Part shown: positions 5,098-55,424 of the stretch, in pieces | How positions within the stretch are numbered: position 1 is the first letter of the stretch | Layout of the letters: every line of letters starts with the position of its first letter | Virus record (IMG/VR): IMGVR_UViG_3300035661_000005 | DNA length: 64,000 bases | Reading direction: 5' to 3' (one strand) | Source of the DNA: a virus | Lineage: Duplodnaviria > Caudoviricetes | Notes under the pieces: model-generated | Database searches by the model: none | What the model saw: the letters and a program-made list of their open reading frames with translations, nothing else | Told to the model about the DNA's origin: nothing | Position numbers and translations under genes: made by a program

Positions 5098-8000
5098 ATG
5101 CCTCGGGGACCGTTTCAGGGAACGTGGCAGCAGGGTGTGCGGCCGACCGTCACGATGGCGCCGGACGCCCTGGTCTACATCAACGGGCAGACGGAGATCA
5201 TCGGTTGCCCCAGCTGCAACCGGACCTTCGATATCCACAAGTACCTGACGAGCGTCCAGGTCGACCTCAACATCGACGGCCCTGGGAGCGGTTCGGCCAG
5301 CCTCAGCCTCTCAGTGCCCCGGCACGCAATCGAGGACTTCTACTTCGAGGGTGTCCCCGTCATTCAGCCGATGATGGAGGTGGAGATCTTCGCCAAGGGC
5401 TACTTCCTTGTCGAGGGGGTTCCACAGTACTACCCGATCTTCTGGGGCCTCGTGACGGAGGTCGACGATGGCTACTCCAGCGGCGAGCAGACGATTAATA
5501 TCAACTGCGCGGACATCCTGAAGTGGTGGGAGCTGTGCAAGATGAACGTGAACGCGGCCTTCACGGCCGCGACCGGGCAGATGGGGCGATCCATCTTCGG
5601 CAACGTCTTCTTCGGTACGAACCCCTACGACGTCATCTGGTCGCTGGCCCAGTCGGCGATGGGGGACGTGGTTCGCGGTGCGGGGTCGCTCACGAGCATG
5701 TCCAAGGAGAGCACGCAGACCGACACCTTCATGCGGGTCAATGGCGACATGGCCCTCTATTGGACCCAGCGCTTCAGCCGCATCACGAACAACCTGCTGC
5801 TCTATGGGGTCAACGGACAGGTCATCCGGGGCGACTCCCTCATGGCCACGTACAAGCAGGGCAAGGGGAGCCTCGACAAGATCGCCTCCCGTGCGGTGCA
5901 ACAGGCGAACGGTGGCCCAGAGAACGGGCAGGCGGTCTTCGACCCGACCAGCAGCCAGGTCGTGGCGTTCAAGACCCAGTTCGGTCAGGCGGGTCAGGTC
6001 AATTTCTGGCAATCCGAATACCAGTCGAAGCTGGAGCTAGCCAACTCCGCGAAGGAGGCGATCGGCTTCGAATTCTACATGGACGTCGATGGCTCCATCG
6101 TCTTCAAGCCGCCCTTCTACAACCTCGACACGCTGCCCAACAAGCCCGTCTCGTGGATTCAGGACATCGACATCATCGACTGGAATTTCTCAGAGTCCGA
6201 GGCCGAGGTCATCACGCAGGTGCAGATGTCCGGCAGCTTCGGTGGCAACATCGACTACTCGATGCCCGCCGACGTGGAGCCCCAGACGTCCGTCACGGAC
6301 TACCACCTGCTCTTGAAGTACGGCTGGCGCACCAAGCCGGTCAACTCCGAGTTCCTCGGCGACCCGATGCTGATGTTCTATCATGGGTTGGACATCCTCG
6401 ATGTCACCAACTCGAAGAGGCATCGCGGCACCGTCACGATCCCCTGCCGTCCTGAGCTGCGCCTAGGGTTCCCGATCTACGTCGCACCCAAGGACCAGAT
6501 GTGGTACGTGTCGGGCATCAGCCACAACATCTCGTTCGGTGGCCGAGCGACAACGACCCTCACTCTCACGGCACGCCGGGGCAAGTTCTTCGCGCCAAAG
6601 GGTATCGGGCAGCTCATTCTTGATAGCGTCACCGAGAAGAACAAACCTGGGACGGCGAACAACACAAGCACGGCCGGGACGTCTGGGGTGCAGTCGTCCT
6701 CGACGTACAAGTGGTCTTCTCGTCAGCTGGCGAAGGGTGGCAAGTTCACCCTGAAGGTCGGGGAGGCGGCGCAGATGCCGCCCAACCTCGAAGCGATGTC
6801 GAAGCCCGTCGACTCGAACCCTTACGCCCCCCTGGTGCTCCGTCACCCGCGGACGGGGCGGGCTGTGGGGTACCCGAACGTCGTCATGGCGTACACCCGG
6901 CCCTTCACGCCTGCGCCAGACGACCTCAAGCAGCAGGTCGGCCAAGGCGGCAAGACCAAAGCGTTCATCTCCAAGGACAAGCAGAAGGAAGTCGGGGACC
7001 GAGACAAGGCAAATGACCAGTATTTGAAGCAGTTGGAGGTCCAGCTGGCCGACGAGGTGCGGTCCAAGTACATGCAGAACCGCTACCAGTACGGCCTCAA
7101 CTCGGCAGGCGTGTTCACCTACCTTCACGATACGAAGAAGGTGATCGCCGAGGTGCTCCTGGCACCCACGACCAACTTCACGATGAAGGATGCTAACGGC
7201 GCACCCGCCAAGCTCCTTCAAGGGGAGCACTCGATGGTCCGGCCGGTCAGCGATGATCGTGGCTTCGAGGTCATTGGTCACTTCCGGTACGGCCGTGGGC
7301 TACAGCTACGGGACGGGCGTCTCGTTCGGACGGATGAGGCCAACGCACCCGCCCAGATCTCGGTCCAAACGGCGTTGTCAGGAGACCTCTACGCGACGCT
7401 CGCCGCTCAGTCTCAGGGTCTCACGACCCTGTCGACGTCGTATCCGAACCCCGCAGCGTCCCTCGCGAACCTCGCTCCGGATCCCGATCTTCAAACGGCG
7501 GGGATTATCAACGACAAGGGGCAGCCCGAGTTCGTGGACAGCGCGCCCAACTTCGTCGACACCGCGCCTCTGGGTTCCCCCGAGCGGGCGAAGTTCCCTA
7601 CGTCCGTGGAGGCTAGCCAGCTGAGCAAGGCCCTAACCCTGGCTGAGATGACCGTGAAGATGGATGGTGCGACGGGCTCCGACACCTGTGGGTGCATCCT
7701 CGGTCGACCCGATCTTGCCTTCCTCGCCTCGGGTTACCAGGTCCAGCTGACGGATACGACGGCCGGAACGACGCCCGACGCCTCGACACTCTTCGATCAG
7801 TACTCGACCTTCTCCACGACGGACCGCGCCGCGGGGGTCGCTGTCATCGGCGGCTCCGAGGATCTTGGCCGAGCGCAAGGCGGCGGGTCGACGACGGGCG
7901 GGGCTCGGCCTGTCGCTCCGTCCCTCGCATCGTCCGCGTCATCGCCGGAGGAGATGGCCAGCAAGATCAACCAGATCCTCTTCGACCTCTACCAGGTGCT

Positions 8001-49000: not shown

Positions 49001-50404
49001 TTCGATGGTCCGCTCTTCTGGGTCGAGATCGACGAGGACGGGGATTCGACCTTCATCCTCAACGCAGACGCCCTCGACCTCTCGAAGTCCACGGTCAACC
49101 CGATCGTGAGCTTCATGGACTCCACGGCGCACTTCGTCATCGAGGCGAGCATCTTCGGCTTCGATCGTGGATCCTTCGCCCCGGACGGTGAATTCCGCCT
49201 CGTCCTGACGCAGCCGACGGGTTCCGCTGGGATGCGTCAGCAGGCGAACACGGCCTACCGTTACAACGACGGGGTCCATCCGGGGAACATCGGGGTTCCG
49301 GTCTCGGGTCCGATCGCGGTCCTCCCGGGTCCGCTCGGTGGATCGGACTCGGCGCTCATCAACTACAGCCGGACGCCCTACGGTGGCGACGCCTGGGGTA
49401 GCCAGACCAACTACATCGACATCGGCTACGCGCCGGGGTCGCTGACGAGCGGTATCGCCTACCTGTTCGAGGCCAACAAGCCGCAGGAGGCCAACCTCAC
49501 GCGGCCGAACCAGAAGGCGCTGGAAGTCCTGGCCTCGGTCAGCTTCAGCACGACGGCTGGGACGGGGCGCATCAGTGGAGTCGCCGACTCCACTGGCATG
49601 GCCCTCAACCCGATCTCGAACCCTGGGGCCGAGGATCTGACCTTCTACCCCCCTACGAGTCCAGTGGCGCCTCGGCCCCGGTTCGCCATGGGAGCGCTGG
49701 TCAACGAATTCTACCAGGTGCCGATCACCTCGAAGTACCTCGGCTGCACGGAGCGCCTCCCCCTCGGCGGCCTCTGGCGGGACAAGGACTTCAAGGGCGG
49801 CTCGTTCACCACGATGCCCGGCCCGCTGGTGAAGGGGATGGAGCGCTCGTTCGGTGCGGGTACCGGCCTGGCTCGCACCTCGACCTTGGAGGCGTTCGAT
49901 GCGGTTCCGATCCCGGACCACGGGACGGGTGAGCCGGGCGTCCTCGTCCATGTGGACGGCGAGTCGGGCAACTACTCGCCCCCCGTGGTCAACTTCCGGA
50001 CGTTCCGTGGCGGGTCGGCCTTCTCGGCAGCGGGTCCGAACCCGGGTGGGGAGGTGCTCGAAACCTCCGGCTGGAGCTTCCCGATCAACGACGTCAATCA
50101 GACCCTGTCGGCGACGGCCTACCTGGTGCGCAACACGGTCACCAACGTCGGCCTGACGGAGGTCTCGGCGGGCGATGAGCTGATGCTCCTGATCATCACG
50201 ACCGTTCAGCCGCCCAGTGACATGCACCTCATGGGACGGCAGCCGCTCACGGTCCGGTGCTCGACCAACGGGTTCGGGGAGGGTTACTCGGCGGCCGATC
50301 TCTACCGCATCGAGGGTCACCCGCTCGTCCGGAACAACGTCCACATGCAGGTCAACCCGAGCGCGATCGTTCTGACGCGAAACCCCGAGGTGGTGCAGCC
50401 ATGA
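46025..50404 (+). CDS. Virion structural / tail fibre-associated protein (1459 aa, paralog of 32676..35240)
   Basis: LQQGKPPMDAEFN, RVQLQYRIRV, GDPGLWRAGDG, GTVDGYVYAVP and RPDGLF motifs. Confidence 0.65.
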   Translation: MNNLGPDTSRVLDPTATGFLEVILQQGKPPMDAEFNLLQEIATGQVQAAVLRGVLSGWLGNETGLPSDFVTNPSWSNWFQFGQQRSGERASVKWAIVNGWLIPVAGTRTGSPPGAPDDTDTYNKIALDPPPANSGDFRIDFIFLETWLARVAPNPSTANKPNASAIYRYGNVEGGATFLPDNLIDPALGFETSQRVQLQYRIRVVKGLVGFTGYPDGFDPAIVRAKGAYDPTNPDTTTAYTFQNMRQTLGDPGLWRAGDGTVNNLGTVDGYVYAVPIAAVFRRNGVAWNGDPSQNLNGSFNRDPSAVARALNPKIFASSVTIASVMTATSTSVTLSTATNLPFPATPATPVTVRIGDEIVQYSSIVGTTMNISARGQNGTSAEAHQVGAPVKILSGRPDGLFADQVAGTDILDLRHAVNPNGFDYQAMLESNLDKLLKGELRTNWKRSGAGPQGPFVAYQDKITAGAVSLGVTKLDAPDKIRTIFSDASCLQPIEIVAFPNGTTSPADVGVAWGLRMSIIHTPVIGGRFSPGDTLVIPVNQLKAGLPGGDADQVRWMIEGFEMRVDGNSQPIDPSTYALTPTTPTSSDPLTITLQAGFPTTTRQLYIKAYAIYGAGRGLSRRPDAVHSIALLSPSADILSNPVGTPSTNRGMKISWVPLWSKFAGSGVGRGLPTVSEAYVDAASKTVVLQPLQRIEMPAEFITMDGTAANIDPGASPVFTNNAGSSAGSNVLTDMTVNFITAGVTPGMAVIISNGPQPGRYVVSTLPSSVTANTLTLDRPLYATTSGLSYAIYTGQGLMPLRKRDGVTAKWAQTDPLNLFSGNLEAATPYPAATKNIYVTLPRHLVPGWGEYKLPILRAGTSIFAEGVNYMLLSQTGGTYTDNDRNFVPYAASGVSFACFSTLDFNPPGTNPAAYNAAFGPVGGKTYAGIRKYTDTRGLMRQGLELPPFYGVARLFAVYEANDYKVNGSAYNDVTRVATGSPTSAKNLLRQNFDGPLFWVEIDEDGDSTFILNADALDLSKSTVNPIVSFMDSTAHFVIEASIFGFDRGSFAPDGEFRLVLTQPTGSAGMRQQANTAYRYNDGVHPGNIGVPVSGPIAVLPGPLGGSDSALINYSRTPYGGDAWGSQTNYIDIGYAPGSLTSGIAYLFEANKPQEANLTRPNQKALEVLASVSFSTTAGTGRISGVADSTGMALNPISNPGAEDLTFYPPTSPVAPRPRFAMGALVNEFYQVPITSKYLGCTERLPLGGLWRDKDFKGGSFTTMPGPLVKGMERSFGAGTGLARTSTLEAFDAVPIPDHGTGEPGVLVHVDGESGNYSPPVVNFRTFRGGSAFSAAGPNPGGEVLETSGWSFPINDVNQTLSATAYLVRNTVTNVGLTEVSAGDELMLLIITTVQPPSDMHLMGRQPLTVRCSTNGFGEGYSAADLYRIEGHPLVRNNVHMQVNPSAIVLTRNPEVVQP

Positions 50405-50601
50405 TCCGCTCGATGACCTACCTGGACCTGACGCCCGAGCAGCGCAAGAAGGGGGCCAGCGTCGCACGGGAGCGTCTCCGCGGGGTGCTCGCCAATCCGT
50501 TCCTCACGGAGGAGCAGCGGCTGCATGTCCACGACGAGATGCACCGGCTCGACAAGTGGGAGAAGGGGCAGCCCCTCCCACCGAAGCCCTCGGTTGGGTG
50601 A
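50401..50601 (+). CDS. Small hypothetical protein (66 aa)
   Basis: ATGA overlap with the previous stop; MIRSMTYLDLTPEQRKK...KPSVG fills the gap before the holin leader. Confidence 0.55.
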   Translation: MIRSMTYLDLTPEQRKKGASVARERLRGVLANPFLTEEQRLHVHDEMHRLDKWEKGQPLPPKPSVG

Positions 50602-50640
50602 GTCCTCCTATGGAGGACTCTGGTAAAGGAGTCCTCCATG
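50600..50640 (+). promoter_or_regulatory. Mutually exclusive hairpins over the holin RBS and start codon
   Basis: GAGTCCTCC (50600-50608) and GAGTCCTCCAT (50629-50639) are both reverse complements of the central ATGGAGGACTC (50610-50620). Confidence 0.7.
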
Positions 50641-51048
50641 CCGACGCTCGACAAGGGATTAGAGATCTTCATCAACTGGCAGACGTTCGTCTTCTGCCTC
50701 GGTATCTACTTCGCCACGCAGATCGTCCGGACCCTGGTCGAGGCGTTCGTTCCGAACGTCAAGGTGAAGGGTACGAAGACGTACCACGCGTGGAACGAGG
50801 CCTTCCTGCCGCTCGGCCCGTTCGGGACGGGGATGCTCATCGCGCTCCTGGCGAAGAAGTTCCCGTGGCCGATGCCGATCGCGGATGCCATGTCAGCGAA
50901 GCTGATGTACGGCCTCATCTGCGGCGGTGCCTCGGGCTTCATGTACGGCCGGTTCCGCGCTTTCATCCGCATCCGGACCGAGAGCAAGGATGATGGGACT
51001 GCCATCGCGGATCCCGTCTCCGTGGACAACCAACCCCCGGGGAAGTGA
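50638..51048 (+). CDS. Holin-like membrane protein
   Basis: 136 aa with about three hydrophobic segments, a GLICGGASGFMY motif and a charged C-terminus. AAGGAG RBS; located at the end of the tail module. Confidence 0.6.
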   Translation: MPTLDKGLEIFINWQTFVFCLGIYFATQIVRTLVEAFVPNVKVKGTKTYHAWNEAFLPLGPFGTGMLIALLAKKFPWPMPIADAMSAKLMYGLICGGASGFMYGRFRAFIRIRTESKDDGTAIADPVSVDNQPPGK

Positions 51049-51587
51049 TGGCGGACCAAGATCGGACGCAGACCTTCTGGCAGGCCGTGTGGGCCAAGCT
51101 CAAGCAGTGGGGGCACTGGGCGGCGCTGAAGCTAGTGGCGCCTGGTGTCGCTCTCGTGGTCATTCTGGTGGCGGTCCTGCTCGTGTCGGTCGGCTTCAAG
51201 GAGCTGCAGATCGGCGGTATCCTCGGCAAGCTCTTCGGCAAGAAACCCTCGGACAAGGCCATCGACACGGCGAACACGATCCCGCCGCACCGGGTCGACG
51301 AGAAGGGGAAGCTGATCCCGGCTGGGACGCCCGATTCGAAGGGTACCACGCAGGCGGTGGTCGTTCCCATCCAGGAGCCGGGCATCTTCTCGAACCCCGA
51401 CACGGTGAAGTTCACCCCGCCGGGGAAGGATGAGCCGGTCGAGGTCCAGCTCCCCGATGGCGTCAAGAACAAGGACGTCTCGCAGGTCGTTATCGTTCAC
51501 CCGGACATGGTCGTGGTGACTGTGAAGGACAACTCGGGGATCCCGGCGTCCCACGTGGATGACCTGCTCAAGAAGTACGGAGGCTGA
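51048..51587 (+). CDS. N-terminally anchored membrane protein (possible inner-membrane spanin-like component)
   Basis: Basic amphipathic N-terminus, a single TM segment (LVAPGVALVVILVAVLLVSVGF) and a hydrophilic C-domain. ATG at 51048 overlaps the holin stop. Confidence 0.5.
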   Translation: MADQDRTQTFWQAVWAKLKQWGHWAALKLVAPGVALVVILVAVLLVSVGFKELQIGGILGKLFGKKPSDKAIDTANTIPPHRVDEKGKLIPAGTPDSKGTTQAVVVPIQEPGIFSNPDTVKFTPPGKDEPVEVQLPDGVKNKDVSQVVIVHPDMVVVTVKDNSGIPASHVDDLLKKYGG

Positions 51588-51589
51588 AC

Positions 51590-52186
51590 GTGAAGCGTAC
51601 GATCCTACTTCTCGGGCTACTTCTCCCCTCCGTGGCAGCGGCGCAGACGACTTGTCCGGCGGGGTCAACGTGCGTCCCGGCCGACGACATGAGGGTGTTC
51701 GTGCAGCTGCTGAAGGACCAGAAGTGCCGTGCGGAGACGGCGCCGATCTTCAAGCTCGACCCCATCTCGATCGTCACGGACAAGGATGGGCGCGTCTACG
51801 GGTCCGGGAGCGGACCGCAGCCGTACAAGCTCAAGATGTCGTGGTGCAACTACGAGGTTGAGGGCAAGGGACAGGTCGACATCGCCGTGGCGAAGCGTGA
51901 GCCGGAGACCTCCGGGTTCCGCTTCCGTCCCAAGGCGGCCATCGGCTACCTGCCGGTCACAGCGTACAAGCAGTCGGACGGGTACGCGGGGCTCGATGCC
52001 GGCGTCCTGATCGAGCCGGCGTACGTCTCGTGGTTCAACTTCAACGCCTACGTGGGCTTCCGCTCGGTCGGCGGGGGCTTCGGGTTCGACCTGACGAGGA
52101 ACATGGGCGCCTACGTGGGCTACGCGATCACGTGGGGCACCTGGCAATCCAACCTACACGGGGCGATCTCGTTCGCTCTCTGGTGA
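51590..52186 (+). CDS. Exported protein with a Cys-containing N-domain and C-terminal amphipathic beta-strands (possible outer-membrane protein)
   Basis: Signal peptide MKRTILLLGLLLPSVAAA, four Cys residues and alternating aromatic/Gly strands ending in GAISFALW. Confidence 0.55.
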   Translation: MKRTILLLGLLLPSVAAAQTTCPAGSTCVPADDMRVFVQLLKDQKCRAETAPIFKLDPISIVTDKDGRVYGSGSGPQPYKLKMSWCNYEVEGKGQVDIAVAKREPETSGFRFRPKAAIGYLPVTAYKQSDGYAGLDAGVLIEPAYVSWFNFNAYVGFRSVGGGFGFDLTRNMGAYVGYAITWGTWQSNLHGAISFALW

Positions 52187-52230
52187 GAGCCTGGCGTACG
52201 ATCGTCGTTCCGTCACGGGGTCCTCGGATC

Positions 52231-52298
52231 CTGCGACGCCACGTGAGTGCCCTCGCAGATGGGCCAGTCCTTTCGGCCCATAGCGGTGTAAGGGAGGG
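52231..52298 (+). promoter_or_regulatory. Structured leader of the helicase gene: hairpin plus candidate H-type pseudoknot covering the SD
   Basis: CTGCGA/TCGCAG stem with an inner CAC-GTGA-GTG hairpin, and an ATGGGCC/GGCCCAT stem whose loop TCCTTT is complementary to AAGGGA at 52290-52295. Confidence 0.45.
52284..52292 (+). promoter_or_regulatory. CGGTGTA motif, candidate phage promoter element (copy upstream of the SNF2 helicase)
   Basis: The same 7-mer starts 18-30 nt upstream of four replication-module start codons. Confidence 0.5.
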
Positions 52299-52301
52299 CC
52301 A

Positions 52302-55300
52302 ATGCCTCCCAAAGTGTTGACGCCCGAGCTGCTCGTCACGTACGACCAGCTCAAGAAGGTTCGGGAATCCAAGACGGTTGCGCTCAAGCCGACCCCGATG
52401 CTTCGCGAAGAGATCGCGGGGTTCAACGGCAAACCGCAGCCGCTCAAGCTCCGCTACTACCAGTCGCAGGGCATCTTCCACCTGCTGCTGATGAAGCGCA
52501 TGGTTCTCGGAGACGGGACGGGCCTCGGGAAGTGTGTGACGGGCGACACCTTGCTCGCCACCGATAAGGGCCTCATCCCCATCTTGTCCCTCGCTCCCGC
52601 GGAGGACTTGCAGCCGAACACCTTCTACGAGCCGGCTTTCCCCGTGAGGGTCAGGATCGGGAACGAGTACGTTCCCGTCCATCGGTTCTACTGGAACGGT
52701 GAGGTGCGTACATACAAGGTGCGAACCAGGGATGGGTTTGAGGTCACGGGCAGCGCCAATCATCCGATCCTGGTCCGAGGGCCGGATGGGGAGAGCTTTT
52801 GCAAGCTCCCTGAGGTGGAGCCTGTAGAGAACTACGCCTGTATCGAGCGGCGGTCTTCCTTCCCGCTCTCGGTTCCTCCTATCCCGTTCGAGCCGAAGGT
52901 GGCGCCCAACGCAACGCGTTACACGGTCCCGAGCCACATCACGCCCGAACTGGCGCGGCTGCTCGGATACATCGTGGCCGCGGGGACGGTGACCTCGAAG
53001 TATCGAACGACCATCACGCAGCACCTGAACATGAACTCCGAAGCACACACGGACATCAGGGGGCTTCTTCAGACCATCTTCGGTTGGTCAAATGACACGA
53101 CCAACGCGGACCGTGACAAGAGCATCGAGGTCACGAGCCTCTGGCTCCGGCAGTACTTCGAAGCGTGTGGGGTGGGTTACACCACCGCACACACGAAGTC
53201 TGTCCCGTGGTGCGTTCAGCAGGGGACACGGGAAGTTGTGGCGGGGTTCCTTCGAGGGCTTTTCGAGGGCGATGGATCGGTGGTGTCGGGCGGGGTCGAG
53301 TTCTCTACCGCTTCGGAGCGGCTGGGAAAGGAGGTGCAGATCATGCTCCTCCAGTTCGGAATCGTGGCGACCCGGAAGTTCGTCGATGAGTACGACCACA
53401 CCTACTGGTGGCTCACCCTGTTCGGGGAGGATGCCAAGCTCTTCCACGACCAGATCGGGTTCGCCTCTCGTCGGAAACAGGACGCCCTCACGCAGTCCTT
53501 GCCCGCTGAGCGGAACCCGAACAAGGACGTGGTGCCTCACGCTCGGGAACTCGTGGAGCAGGTGCGGGCGGCCCTGATGGCGAAGTTGGATGTCTCTGGC
53601 TCGAACAACCAGCGACAGGGGTCTGGGCTCAAGCAGTTGGGGGACAATTTTCAGTCCAAGCTGAAGCATGTCCGGTCGGGTAACCGGAACCCCACCTACG
53701 CTTTCTTGCAGGAGGTGTATGCGGCCTGTGAGACGGCGGGGATTCTGGGGGATCCTGCCGTACAGGAGCTGTATGACCTTCTCCGCAGCCATTACTACTA
53801 CGACCCTATCGTCGAAGTCATCGAAGCCGGAACCCAGCCGGTGATGGACATCGAGGTCGATGACCCCCGGCACGCTTTCACGGCAAACGGGTTGGTCAAC
53901 CACAACACGTGCCAGGCGATCGGCGCCCTGTGCTACCTCTGGGCGAAGGAGACGGGCAACCGGGTCATCATCGTCACCCCGAAGTCCGCCCTACGTCAGT
54001 GGGACACAGAGATCCACCGCTTCGCCACGGGGATCAAGACGTACATCGTCTCGGGCACGCTGGAGGAGCGGAAAGCGGTCTACGAGGCGTGGGCGAAGCA
54101 TCCGGAGGACCACCCGAAGAAGCCGGTCCTCTTGGTCAACTACCACCTGCTCGTGCGCGACTGGGACCACGGGGGCGGGCTCAAGAAGGACCCGAAGAAC
54201 CCGAGGGACAAGGGCACGGTCGTCCCGGGGCTCGTGAACAGCCTGACGATGGGCATGCCGAACATCGTGACCATCTACGATGAGGCCACGGCGTTCAAGA
54301 ATTCGTCGACGAAGACGTGGCAGGTGGCGGCGCAGCTGTCGTTGCGGTCGCATCGTTGCTACGGGCTGACGGCGACCCTCCTCAAGAACAACCTCATGGA
54401 GGGCTTCTCGATCTACAAGGCCATCGTGCCCGACCTGTTCGGCACGAAGACCGGCTTCATCCGGGACTACTGCGTGACGCGCGACCTGCAGGTCAGCGGC
54501 CGACGCATCCCCCTCGTGGTCGGCTACCGCAACCTGCAGACGTTCCGCAACACGATCGACCCGTTCTTCCTGGGGAGGTCCAAGCACACGGTCAGCGACG
54601 AGCTACCGACCCTCATCACGAAGGACATGCTCTGCGAGCTGTCCCCCGCCGAGGATGCCAAGTACACCGAGGCCCTGACGGGGATCATCGAGCTGGGCGA
54701 TGGTGAGGTCAAGGACTACGAGGAGCACAAGGCGTTCGTCAGCCTGATCTACTGCCAACAGGCGGTGAATTCGCTGACGATGCTCAAGTTCGACTCCGGG
54801 CAGGAATTCGAGACGGGGCTCTTCAGCGACGAGGTGCTCAAGGTCGACAAGCTCGGTGCCAAAGAGCAGGCCCTCTTCGACCTCATCAACGATGAGCTGT
54901 CGGACGAGAAGGTCATCGTCTACACGCGCTTCGCGTCCCTCGTCCCGCGTCTCCAGCACATCCTCGCCGAGGCCAAGATCAAGTCCGTCCGGATCACCGG
55001 CAAGGACAACGACATCGCGCGCAAGAAGGCCCAGGAGGCGTTCCAGAACCTGGAGTCCGATACGAAGGTCATCTTCATCACGGACGCCGGGTCGGAGGCC
55101 ATCAACCTCCAGGCGGCGAGCGCGATGATCTTCTACGACGCGCCGTGGAGCTGGGGCAACTACGTCCAGCTGCTGGGTCGCCCGATCCGTATCGGCAGCC
55201 CGCACCAGCACATCGTTGTCTACCACCTCATCGCCGAGCGTCCGGGGGATACGAAGAAGGCCCGCAAGACGATCGACCACCATGTTTTGGAGATGCTCGA

Positions 55301-55424
55301 CAAGAAGAAGGGCCTGATCGATCGCGTTCTCGGCGAGGCGGCGGTTGGGGCCTTGGACTTCGAGAAGGGTTCGGTTACCAAGGATCTCGTGCGTAGGCTC
55401 CAGGGCAAGGGCGGTGACGAATGA
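52302..55424 (+). CDS. SNF2-family (SF2) DNA helicase, intein-containing
   Basis: LGDGTGLGK|T Walker A (split by the intein), IYDEA, TAT, SEAINLQAAS..IFYD and QLLGRPIRIG motifs. Confidence 0.9.
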   Translation: MPPKVLTPELLVTYDQLKKVRESKTVALKPTPMLREEIAGFNGKPQPLKLRYYQSQGIFHLLLMKRMVLGDGTGLGKCVTGDTLLATDKGLIPILSLAPAEDLQPNTFYEPAFPVRVRIGNEYVPVHRFYWNGEVRTYKVRTRDGFEVTGSANHPILVRGPDGESFCKLPEVEPVENYACIERRSSFPLSVPPIPFEPKVAPNATRYTVPSHITPELARLLGYIVAAGTVTSKYRTTITQHLNMNSEAHTDIRGLLQTIFGWSNDTTNADRDKSIEVTSLWLRQYFEACGVGYTTAHTKSVPWCVQQGTREVVAGFLRGLFEGDGSVVSGGVEFSTASERLGKEVQIMLLQFGIVATRKFVDEYDHTYWWLTLFGEDAKLFHDQIGFASRRKQDALTQSLPAERNPNKDVVPHARELVEQVRAALMAKLDVSGSNNQRQGSGLKQLGDNFQSKLKHVRSGNRNPTYAFLQEVYAACETAGILGDPAVQELYDLLRSHYYYDPIVEVIEAGTQPVMDIEVDDPRHAFTANGLVNHNTCQAIGALCYLWAKETGNRVIIVTPKSALRQWDTEIHRFATGIKTYIVSGTLEERKAVYEAWAKHPEDHPKKPVLLVNYHLLVRDWDHGGGLKKDPKNPRDKGTVVPGLVNSLTMGMPNIVTIYDEATAFKNSSTKTWQVAAQLSLRSHRCYGLTATLLKNNLMEGFSIYKAIVPDLFGTKTGFIRDYCVTRDLQVSGRRIPLVVGYRNLQTFRNTIDPFFLGRSKHTVSDELPTLITKDMLCELSPAEDAKYTEALTGIIELGDGEVKDYEEHKAFVSLIYCQQAVNSLTMLKFDSGQEFETGLFSDEVLKVDKLGAKEQALFDLINDELSDEKVIVYTRFASLVPRLQHILAEAKIKSVRITGKDNDIARKKAQEAFQNLESDTKVIFITDAGSEAINLQAASAMIFYDAPWSWGNYVQLLGRPIRIGSPHQHIVVYHLIAERPGDTKKARKTIDHHVLEMLDKKKGLIDRVLGEAAVGALDFEKGSVTKDLVRRLQGKGGDE
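52533..53906 (+). mobile_element. Intein (458 aa) with a LAGLIDADG endonuclease region, inserted in helicase Walker A
   Basis: Begins CVTGDT after GLGK and ends ANGLVNHN before Thr. It has the SANH block B and the LLGYIVAAG and FLRGLFEGDG motifs. Confidence 0.92.

Follow-up and report, generated by a model that had tools for sequence, protein, structure and literature searches.

The window, by which we mean the whole 64,000-nucleotide stretch of phage DNA analysed here, carries at positions 50638-52186 three small envelope-protein genes that close the tail-gene block of a ~450-kb “huge” phage. The three genes, hol136, tm180 and omp198, are a translationally coupled trio and, as all other features of the window described below, are located on the + strand. 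We tentatively regard tm180 and omp198 as an envelope module of two proteins that is conserved in a huge-phage clade and produced late with the tail genes, and we find it plausible, although unproven (a probability of about 40%), that by analogy the pair does the work of a spanin. The tm180/omp198 family is new, and we can only infer its function.

Under this hypothesis, the C-terminal 90 residues of omp198 would insert into the outer membrane via BAM, with a homo-oligomer as the functional unit, while tm180 would be anchored in the inner membrane with its conserved soluble domain most likely in the periplasm, bound to the N-domain of omp198. The two proteins would link both membranes and the complex would destroy the outer membrane after wall degradation, as i- and o-spanins do, with hol136 just upstream acting as a holin-like trigger or accessory. 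The outer-membrane anchor would be a barrel and not a lipoprotein, and relatives in which the two proteins are fused would relate to the pair as T1 gp11 does to Rz/Rz1, being its single-chain equivalent. We are more doubtful about the stronger form of this proposal, a new trans-envelope device in which a BAM-inserted oligomeric barrel with six-strand protomers replaces the o-spanin and, with its inner-membrane partner, ruptures or fuses the outer membrane in both two-gene and single-chain forms.

Tailed phages of Gram-negative hosts all need passage through the outer membrane at lysis, and a sizeable share of phages has no recognisable spanin. To our knowledge, the outer-membrane solutions described are lipoprotein-based spanins and one cationic peptide. 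If the spanin-analogue reading is true, a barrel-anchored partner would be a third route through the outer membrane at lysis, and an annotation gap affecting an entire clade of 450-500-kb phages would be closed. Furthermore, six strands per chain in a natural outer-membrane protein would widen the known barrel architectures and BAM substrates. If the role is not in lysis, the pair would still be a core huge-phage envelope module without known counterpart.

The trio and its setting in a huge-phage clade

Judging from their homologues (at least 118 for omp198, at least 398 for tm180 and 21 for hol136), the three are real genes and not chance ORFs. All of them are found in a metagenomic huge-phage clade whose complete genomes measure 448-513 kb, and none has a match in Pfam, PHROGs, PDB sequences or cultured phages, with zero matches by blastn and tblastn against 50,697 cultured-phage records. 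Relatives are absent from the GTDB species genomes, which therefore give no clue to the host. An earlier reading made from the letters alone (the sequence-only reading) had described a holin-like ORF, a single-TM Cys-free Pro/Val-rich protein and a protein with a signal peptidase I signal, no lipobox and four Cys, and this is how we found them.

The 136-aa membrane protein hol136 (50638-51048) starts with an ATG that has an AAGGAG Shine-Dalgarno site (50626-50631) 6 nt 5′ of it. The spacer in front of the gene (50599-50640) contains one arm and two reverse-complement copies of this arm that overlap both the Shine-Dalgarno site and the ATG, and such repeats may control hol136 translation. Three hydrophobic segments (at about residues 14-36, 53-72 and 86-104) are followed by a charged Pro-rich C-terminal tail, a holin layout that is kept in 29 aligned homologues, and the predicted architecture is like that of a class I holin. 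The sequence diverges fast, with 20-70% identity among homologues, and in the search for a holin family the best PHROG match, phrog_1129, was not significant (E = 0.25) while Pfam returned none. Further upstream, sm67 (50401-50601) encodes a strongly charged, Cys-free and soluble protein of 66 aa; its ATG overlaps the stop of a 1459-aa fibre-like gene (ATGA) and its position is retained in most relatives.

The sites flanking the trio are constant in the clade, with a tail-fibre gene on one side and an SNF2/replication module on the other, and the tm180/omp198 pair is core, syntenic and strongly conserved from AT-rich genomes to genomes of 66% GC. Inserts that vary around the pair encode DnaJ-domain proteins, GIY-YIG/NUMOD3 endonucleases, a methylase, an AdoMet decarboxylase and a zeta-toxin-like protein, and no muralytic enzyme was found among them. 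In 41 of the 42 informative IMG/VR loci, omp198 has tm180 upstream at a distance of 0-2.1 kb, which bears out the co-occurrence expected for the two genes, and every tm180 locus that reaches far enough downstream has omp198, including the AT-rich outlier L079. One locus, L003, has omp198 without a nearby tm180, an observation that speaks against a spanin. The two genes are separated by 2 nt in the window and overlap by ATGA in L079, so that they show the adjacent, overlapped or embedded arrangement and the co-inheritance of spanin genes. Synteny with the holin-like gene, which had also been anticipated, holds for the clade in that hol136 is found there, but fails in L079 and L034, where hol136 is missing from this position.

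Furthermore, the tm180 and omp198 parts are joined in a single ORF in 11 of 119 cluster representatives, and this fusion was confirmed in the DNA of L118, where synteny is unchanged. Artefacts of gene calling or recoding were considered as the source of the fused ORFs and rejected: the L118 junction has no stop or frameshift, and the fusions come from several pipelines with less than 50% mutual identity. In a mirror-tree analysis, the partial distance correlation between tm180 and omp198 (0.42, given DnaB and SNF2) is no higher than that of the DnaB-SNF2 control (0.40) and is therefore uninformative on their co-evolution.

The lack of an endolysin next to the trio, remarked on earlier for this DNA, extends from the window to about 50 related loci, and it counts against a spanin. 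In the complete genome G006, an M15 endolysin (260 aa, Peptidase_M15_4) is located 50 kb from the pair between other TM proteins; these neighbours could be the actual holin or spanin. Phage_lysozyme and Amidase_2 have no match in the complete genomes; neither have GH19 and GH108, a result that is uninformative because the control genomes were likewise blank. SLT matches in the complete genomes are restricted to proteins of 620-690 aa encoded ~50-64 kb upstream of the pair, a position that suggests virion proteins. No conserved canonical lipoprotein spanin was found in G006, which is compatible with a spanin role of the pair, and a candidate made of a 66-aa TM protein and a 98-aa lipoprotein was discarded as the spanin of the clade, being absent from five other genomes. 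Neither tm180 nor omp198 has a Pfam or PHROG spanin match at E ≤ 1, and no homology of the three proteins to any spanin, holin or lysis family was found. The lysis side of the earlier description is not supported: hol136 has no significant holin match and no related locus has an adjacent endolysin. Of the proposed outer-membrane-disruption pair, the obligate pairing (up to fusion) and the place at the end of the late structural block stand, whereas no evidence was found that ties the genes to lysis.

This setting bears on an explanation that we consider unlikely, in which the pair is a non-lytic envelope module that remodels or guards the envelope of the infected cell. Such a module could block the entry of superinfecting DNA or the wall-degrading enzymes of tails, tether the outer membrane or mask a surface structure, in the manner of T4 Imm/Sp, T5 Llp or lambda-type Lom/Cor, which likewise adjoin tail-fibre genes. 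The pair lies directly 3′ of the tail-fibre gene, a typical site for exclusion and receptor masking; the link to an endolysin is missing, with G006 having a separate one with its own TM-protein neighbours; the large virion SLT-domain proteins are possible targets of an exclusion factor; and tm180 is highly conserved with many invariant polar residues, suggesting a specific conserved target. However, receptor-masking proteins track the receptor or the fibre, vary and are often accessory, whereas the pair is core and better conserved than the fibre. It also appears co-transcribed with the late genes, without a promoter-like site of its own, while exclusion genes are usually early, and no PHROG or Pfam match to Lom/Ail, Cor, Imm or Sp was found. 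The Lom/Ail-type exclusion protein that the sequence-only reading had offered as its alternative is likewise a poor fit for a pair that is core and syntenic across the clade and not accessory.

Export and C-terminal strands of omp198

In the spanin-analogue reading, which we prefer, the outer-membrane partner is omp198 (198 aa), encoded from the GTG at 51590 to 52186 with GGAGG 6 nt 5′ of the GTG. According to the source record, the protein would begin at an internal Met and have 165 aa, but two features speak for the GTG as start, namely the Shine-Dalgarno site and the conservation of the signal peptide and, with it, of Cys22/Cys28. The predicted signal peptide (51590-51643, residues 1-18) is of the signal peptidase I type with cleavage at A-A-A/Q, and the family has conserved n-, h- and c-regions with an A-x-A site, as in cleavable Sec signals. 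No lipobox was found in omp198 or its homologues and the first Cys is at position +4 of the mature protein, which sets it apart from the o-spanin lipoproteins. The alpha/beta N-domain (51644-51904, residues 19-105) contains the four Cys as two pairs, C22/C28 and C46/C86; family members that gain or lose Cys do so by the pair. The evidence strongly supports Sec export of omp198 with removal of the signal peptide by signal peptidase I, and equally strongly the stabilisation of the N-domain by two periplasmic disulfides. Signal peptide, paired Cys and C-terminal beta-signal are conserved in at least 108 homologues.

The C-domain (51905-52186, residues 106-198 and the stop codon) consists of six amphipathic strands. 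The AlphaFold model of omp198 (pLDDT 89.5, rising to 96-98 in the C-domain) places them at residues 108-120, 135-146, 149-156, 159-167, 172-181 and 187-196, matching the six that had been picked out by eye in the translation, and closes them as a 6-stranded meander barrel. In five of the strands, alternate positions are 0% charged and vary among hydrophobic residues only, as lipid-facing positions would, while the opposite face is near-invariant Gly, Asn, Asp, Ser or Thr. The C-terminal consensus of the family is G-L-x-F-A-F(-W), a beta-signal in which W or F is terminal in 142 of 212 sequences, with one subclade ending in S-F-N. The terminal Trp, once judged to be out of register with the strand alternation, is an add-on to this consensus, with many members stopping at the Phe. 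These features support the view that the C-domain carries the sequence signature of a membrane beta-barrel.

With six strands in both the AlphaFold model and the sequence, omp198 falls short of the eight or more of a single-chain barrel. We know of no natural monomeric outer-membrane barrel with fewer than eight strands, and the only route to such a barrel known to us for smaller protomers is the partial-barrel oligomer, as in TolC and the trimeric autotransporters, with 4 strands per protomer. As six strands are too few for a normal outer-membrane barrel, the functional unit of omp198 would therefore probably be a homo-oligomer. The oligomer suggested earlier is the natural reading of a barrel signature with no more than six strands.

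Next to this stands the improbable alternative that omp198 is a soluble six-stranded barrel in the periplasm, docking on tm180 or acting alone on the wall or on outer-membrane lipoproteins; that the closed six-strand barrel could be a soluble domain also speaks against a spanin. The closure modelled by AlphaFold is monomeric, and among the structural matches of the C-domain the best is BBn6, a designed barrel that is soluble (Z 9.2, rmsd 2.4 Å, 79/90 residues), followed by a designed TM barrel (Z 5.9) and by OmpA, NspA, OprH and PagL (Z 4-4.7). The conserved glycines could serve as the “glycine kinks” on which small barrels depend, and Pfam OMP_b-brl appears below threshold only, in 2 of 52 family members. 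However, soluble barrels conserve a hydrophobic core and vary a charged surface, and the pattern in omp198 is reversed, with a near-invariant polar Gly-rich face that has few charges. Furthermore, the strands are 9-12 residues long, and their aromatic-rich ends and the C-terminal G-x-x-F-x-F(-W) are typical of BAM substrates. Searches with omp198 gave nothing at E ≤ 0.001 in Foldseek against the PDB and noise only in a PDB-sequence profile search; in BFVD the match was one uncharacterised 324-aa phage protein (E 5e-5) besides weak rows labelled OMP. Atlas, BFVD and Pfam each contribute weak outer-membrane-protein leads.

tm180 and its orientation in the inner membrane

As the inner-membrane partner of the spanin-analogue reading, tm180 (51045-51587) is a bitopic membrane protein of 179 or 180 aa. 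Its start overlaps the hol136 stop as TGATG, and ATG 51048 is more likely to be the start than GTG 51045, from which the residues are numbered here. A Trp/Lys-rich amphipathic helix precedes a single strong TM helix (51132-51197, residues 30-51, Kyte-Doolittle 2.9), which is followed by a juxtamembrane motif (51198-51245, residues 52-67), a near-invariant amphipathic GxxxGxxxG helix. The soluble domain (51246-51584, residues 68-180) is made up of a linker, an extended stretch that is conserved, a small beta domain with five strands, and a helix at the C-terminus; the protein is Pro/Val-rich, and its soluble domain is without Cys family-wide. The fold searches were dominated by the long helix, and a second look yielded no more than weak OB-like similarity to N-domains of proteasomal ATPases (Z 2.5-4.2). 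The conservation of tm180 is at the level of the SNF2 helicase (mean distance 0.41), which is unusual for a spanin. We also note, as a point against a spanin, that the periplasmic parts of the two proteins (~125 and 85 aa) are not elongated and look short to span the periplasm.

With an amphipathic N-tail that is short, a single TM and ~130 aa of soluble domain, tm180 resembles T4 T in layout, which fits a decidedly improbable third explanation, a lysis-timing pair in which tm180 is a class III (T4 T-like) holin and omp198 and/or sm67 its regulator, comparable to T4 RI/RIII or phiKZ gp143. T4 gene t directly follows the tail-fibre genes, and tm180 is directly 3′ of tail-fibre genes as well; the GxxxGxxxG motif of the helix beside the TM occurs in pore formers; and L079 retains tm180 and omp198 without hol136 at this position. 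A precedent is the phiKZ cassette, which pairs a holin of class III with a small regulator in the cytoplasm (PMC12894885). On the other hand, neither Phage_holin_T nor any other holin family matches tm180, holins usually diverge fast whereas few genes of the region are better conserved than tm180, there is no precedent for an antiholin that sits in the outer membrane, and a fusion of holin and inhibitor is hard to square with timing control.

The spanin-analogue reading requires tm180 to be N-in/C-out. The charges flanking the TM (+2.8 on the N side, +2.1 on the C side) lean slightly to N-in, and N-tails that reach 44-64 aa in the family count toward C-out. Cys gains in the soluble domain number 0, compared with 6-14 per 1000 substituted positions in replication proteins, a deficit that favours C-out. 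The coexistence of fused and unfused forms is a natural experiment on the topology of the pair. Two fusions, P0277 and P0279, are without an internal signal peptide, which puts the two parts into a single compartment and favours C-out. Nine fused forms have, between the tm180 and omp198 halves, a hydrophobic segment with a small-x-small cleavage site, an observation that counts against a spanin in that this site favours C-in for tm180. If this internal signal peptide works, the tm180 domain would be cytoplasmic and a periplasmic bridge would be ruled out.

Comparison with known systems

Like lambda Rz/Rz1 and T4 PseT.3/PseT.2, tm180 and omp198 are adjacent, translationally coupled and apparently late genes, and like two-component spanins in general they encode first a protein whose TM is N-terminal and then an exported one with predicted outer-membrane targeting. 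As in T4, the Cys are confined to the outer partner and the genes are unlinked from the endolysin; no Cys in the i-spanin with two in the o-spanin is the commonest combination, and the lysis genes of T4 are dispersed over its genome (PMC6139136). Unlike the two-component spanins, omp198 has no lipobox, with a signal peptidase I signal and a barrel-like C-domain in its place, and tm180 is unusually conserved and lacks a coiled coil; sequence or profile similarity is absent. To require a coiled coil of i-spanins, as was done in the sequence-only reading, is too strict, for spanins without coiled coils exist and more than 120 catalogued i-spanins have no predicted one (PMC6139136).

With small outer-membrane barrels (the OmpA N-domain, OmpX/Ail/Lom, NspA, PagL and OprH), omp198 shares a Sec signal, strands of alternating hydrophobic and small or polar residues, aromatic strand ends, a C-terminal aromatic beta-signal and the weak structural matches given above, and like Lom it is encoded next to tail genes. 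It differs from the eight-strand Lom/Ail/OmpX profile in having six strands, an extra N-terminal domain (predicted to be disulfide-bonded) and no match to a Pfam or other family HMM, and it is a core gene with an obligate partner and not a moron. As in TolC and trimeric autotransporters, a short beta region at the C-terminus carries a periplasmic or passenger domain, although no match to omp198 in sequence or fold was found; we know of no outer-membrane barrel described with six strands per protomer. The C-domain model shares strand number and meander topology with BBn6 (PDB 9XZT), a fold that according to its authors rarely if ever occurs in nature (PMC12478100), but BBn6 is artificial, soluble and only 4% identical in sequence, and in omp198 conservation runs opposite to that in a soluble barrel.

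Finally, like the u-spanin T1 gp11, the fused relatives are predicted to carry inner- and outer-membrane anchors on one beta-rich chain. Their order is reversed compared with T1 gp11, with an N-terminal TM and a C-terminal outer-membrane part, this part is barrel-like and not a lipid anchor, and nine of the fused forms, unlike gp11, have retained a signal-peptide-like segment inside the chain. The existence of the pair both as one chain and as two nevertheless parallels the relation between u-spanins and two-component spanins.

Gene layout and conservation of the cassette

Every large open reading frame (ORF) of the window lies on the plus strand, at about 64% GC, and the first 50 kb are taken up by genes for very large proteins, whose PHROG matches (tail, baseplate, fibre) are few and weak. 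The stop codon of a fibre-like gene (1459 aa, + strand, end 50404) is overlapped by the ATG of sm67, a small charged protein (66 aa; 50401-50601, +). Next come the holin-like hol136 (136 aa; 50638-51048, +), with AAGGAG 6 nt before its ATG, the single-TM protein tm180 (51045/51048-51587, +), whose ATG overlaps the hol136 stop as TGATG, and the exported omp198 (51590-52186, +), with GGAGG 6 nt before its GTG. A 116-nt gap separates omp198 from an SNF2 helicase gene with a LAGLIDADG intein (52302-55424, +), and replication genes follow. The gene junctions show tight coupling, and 50200-52500 showed neither a sigma-70-like promoter nor an intrinsic terminator; hence hol136, tm180 and omp198 look like the end of a late structural transcription unit. 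In the source record omp198 starts at an internal Met, giving 165 aa, while three features speak for the GTG at 51590 and a protein of 198 aa: the Shine-Dalgarno site, the conservation of the signal peptide, and the first Cys pair.

The spacer before hol136 (50599-50640) carries GAGTCCTCC, its complement GGAGGACTC and a second GGAGTCCTCC, so that two alternative hairpins are possible, one of which would cover the Shine-Dalgarno site and the start codon. In relatives, the SNF2 helicase match spans either ~1.5 kb or ~3 kb, indicating that only some genomes carry the intein.

The sequence observation of the three-gene cassette is solid, and the protein features described by the sequence-only reading were recovered. 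The holin-like gene is there, hol136 having three segments of moderate hydrophobicity and a tail rich in Pro and charged residues; the middle protein, tm180, has as described a single strong TM (residues 30-51) and a Cys-free, Pro/Val-rich soluble part; and omp198 has the expected SPase I-type signal peptide (ending A-A-A|Q, without a lipobox), four Cys and, over its last 90 residues, strands alternating between hydrophobic and small or polar residues.

We found nothing significant for the three proteins in Pfam and PHROGs, the best hol136 match being a holin PHROG at a non-significant E = 0.25, and no match in PDB sequence profiles or cultured phages. Scanning each alignment member gave a sub-threshold OMP_b-brl match for 2 of 52 omp198 homologues and nothing further. 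All three fall outside any described family. When 1.84 billion representative proteins were scanned in full by HMMER with the omp198 profile, only 119 representatives came up: a compact family, confined to this phage lineage. The parent contig of the window is 200,835 bp, homologue-bearing metagenomic viral contigs reach 659 kb, and two related IMG/VR records with direct terminal repeats, rated 100% complete, measure 447,761 and 512,571 bp. Repeated stretches matching the omp198 profile also occur in two giant proteins, 10 in P0353 (855 aa) and 24 in P0369 (2209 aa), the latter with 25 Cu-binding_MopE motifs; this likeness probably goes no further than the short Cys-x-Gly-x-x-Cys motif with which the N-domain starts.

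Pairing of tm180 and omp198

Among the 43 loci found with omp198 as query, the order fibre, sm67, hol136, tm180, variable insert, omp198, variable insert, SNF2 and two replication genes is kept in 41, the exceptions being L043, cut at a contig end, and L003, where omp198 lies in another context without tm180. With tm180 as query we found five further contigs, and omp198 directly follows tm180 in all three that extend downstream. At the AT-rich outlier L079, tm180 directly follows the fibre gene and overlaps omp198 by ATGA, and both hol136 and sm67 are absent from the locus. What is conserved as a core is therefore tm180 together with omp198, and hol136 is a frequent but dispensable neighbour. 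That the two proteins form a holin-regulator pair is in our view quite improbable.

Furthermore, tm180-like and omp198-like halves are joined in one ORF in 11 of the 119 representatives. These fusions share less than 50% identity among themselves and come from several assembly pipelines. In the DNA of L118, the fused ORF (P0343) is uninterrupted, its junction free of stop codons and frameshifts, and sits in the same fibre-to-SNF2 neighbourhood; its near relatives keep two separate genes. Gene fusion of this kind strongly indicates that tm180 and omp198 act together, and we regard their pairing as very well supported.

The variable inserts encode mobile or accessory functions (DnaJ-domain proteins, homing endonucleases, a methylase, AdoMet decarboxylase) and no endolysin. 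A J-domain protein of 360-580 aa recurs in L001, L005, L006, L013, L021, L022 and L029, at varying positions: upstream of tm180, between the two pair genes, or downstream of omp198. GIY-YIG/NUMOD3 homing endonucleases adjoin omp198 at L015:7318-7983, L024:2707-3678 and L003:1274-2089, and in P0087 a NUMOD3 region of ~65 aa is joined to the N-terminus of the omp198 part (a fusion or a start-codon call). In a subclade with fused or closely spaced pair genes, an unrelated-looking two-TM protein (L118:5012-5593, 193 aa; L104:5609-5929, 106 aa) takes the place of hol136, a non-orthologous replacement of the small membrane protein. At L079, omp198 is followed by a Cys-rich putative lipoprotein (7035-7346, 103 aa) with a lipoprotein-like signal peptide, o-spanin-like in size; nothing similar occupies this position in the other loci examined.

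Structure and topology of the two proteins

AlphaFold modelled omp198 from 52 sequences at an overall pLDDT of 89.5, rising to 96-98 in the C-domain, and predicts an alpha/beta fold for the N-domain (residues 19-105). Across 212 sequences, the N-domain cysteines C22/C28 and C46/C86 are conserved or missing as pairs, the pattern expected of two disulfides and hence of an oxidising compartment. The C-domain is predicted to be a six-stranded meander, which among solved structures is matched best by BBn6, a designed soluble six-strand barrel (Z 9.2, rmsd 2.4 A, 79 residues), followed by a designed transmembrane barrel (Z 5.9) and OmpA, NspA, OprH and PagL (Z 4-4.7).

The most telling result comes from column statistics over 108 homologues. 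In the last five strands, one alternate set of residues is hydrophobic, varying among V/L/I/F/A and never charged, and the other is near-invariant (D136, G138, N150, N152, G156, G161, G163, G165, D167, G173, G177). A soluble barrel would show the reverse pattern, its core being conserved and its surface variable and charged. The observed faces are those of a membrane barrel or of an oligomer with tight packing, and we consider a soluble periplasmic barrel, despite the BBn6 match, distinctly unlikely. Family members end in G-L-x-F-A-F, usually with a W after it, and this is a good beta-signal. Since six strands, to our knowledge, cannot make any known monomeric outer-membrane barrel, the simplest reading is that omp198 forms an oligomer. 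That omp198 is barrel-like and not a lipoprotein is well supported.

For tm180 (pLDDT 77.8), the model predicts a 40-residue helix comprising an amphipathic part and the TM, then a short near-invariant GxxxGxxxG helix that a disordered linker joins to a conserved extended stretch; beyond this lie a small beta domain of five strands and a helix at the C-terminus. Fold searches with tm180 were uninformative. Its topology is the weak point, as the evidence conflicts. An N-in/C-out orientation is favoured by a slightly more positive N flank (+2.8 versus +2.1), by N-tails reaching 44-64 residues, and by fusions P0277 and P0279, whose halves are joined without any hydrophobic segment. In addition, the soluble domain gained no Cys in ~5,200 aligned residues; Cys gains per 1000 substitutions are 6-14 in replication proteins and 1.3 in the exported omp198. 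Because sm67 is equally Cys-free, this absence is only suggestive of the periplasmic side. Against this orientation, nine fused forms retain, between their two halves, the hydrophobic segment and a small-x-small site, the Lys-rich tm180 end serving as n-region of the signal peptide; if this internal signal works, the tm180 domain must be cytoplasmic.

Function of the pair

The order of a small multi-TM protein, a bitopic protein and an outer-membrane protein matches a lysis cassette, and the genes are late and translationally coupled. It also speaks for such a cassette that in large phages such as T4 the lysis genes are scattered (PMC6139136). Against it, none of the three proteins shows homology to lysis proteins. 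Moreover, tm180 is as conserved as the helicase, which counts against a lysis cassette; such conservation would be unusual for spanins. We consider it unlikely that the pair has a non-lytic envelope role. Our tentative reading, with a probability of about 0.4, is a spanin-like function, in which tm180 in the inner membrane and omp198 in the outer membrane would disrupt the outer membrane at lysis. At the least, tm180 and omp198 make up a new and uncharacterised core envelope module of this huge-phage clade, one that lends itself to direct testing in E. coli.

Elsewhere in the clade, we rebuilt the complete genome G006 (IMGVR_UViG_3300022744_000001) from 24 stretches, and a scan of its lipobox ORFs yielded no conserved canonical spanin, a point in favour of a lysis role for the pair. 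The sole small TM-plus-lipoprotein pair there, at 137.3-137.8 kb, is missing from five other clade genomes. Counting against that role, G006 has a candidate lysis cluster of its own 50 kb downstream of tm180-omp198 (221,382-224,091, minus strand), in which a standard 260-aa PG_binding + Peptidase_M15_4 endolysin is flanked by a 266-aa N-terminal-TM protein and a 255-aa TM protein; these two neighbours could be the true holin and its partner. In G005, a T4-lysozyme-type enzyme of 182 aa lies at a similar distance from the pair. The different enzymes suggest endolysin replacement at one locus.
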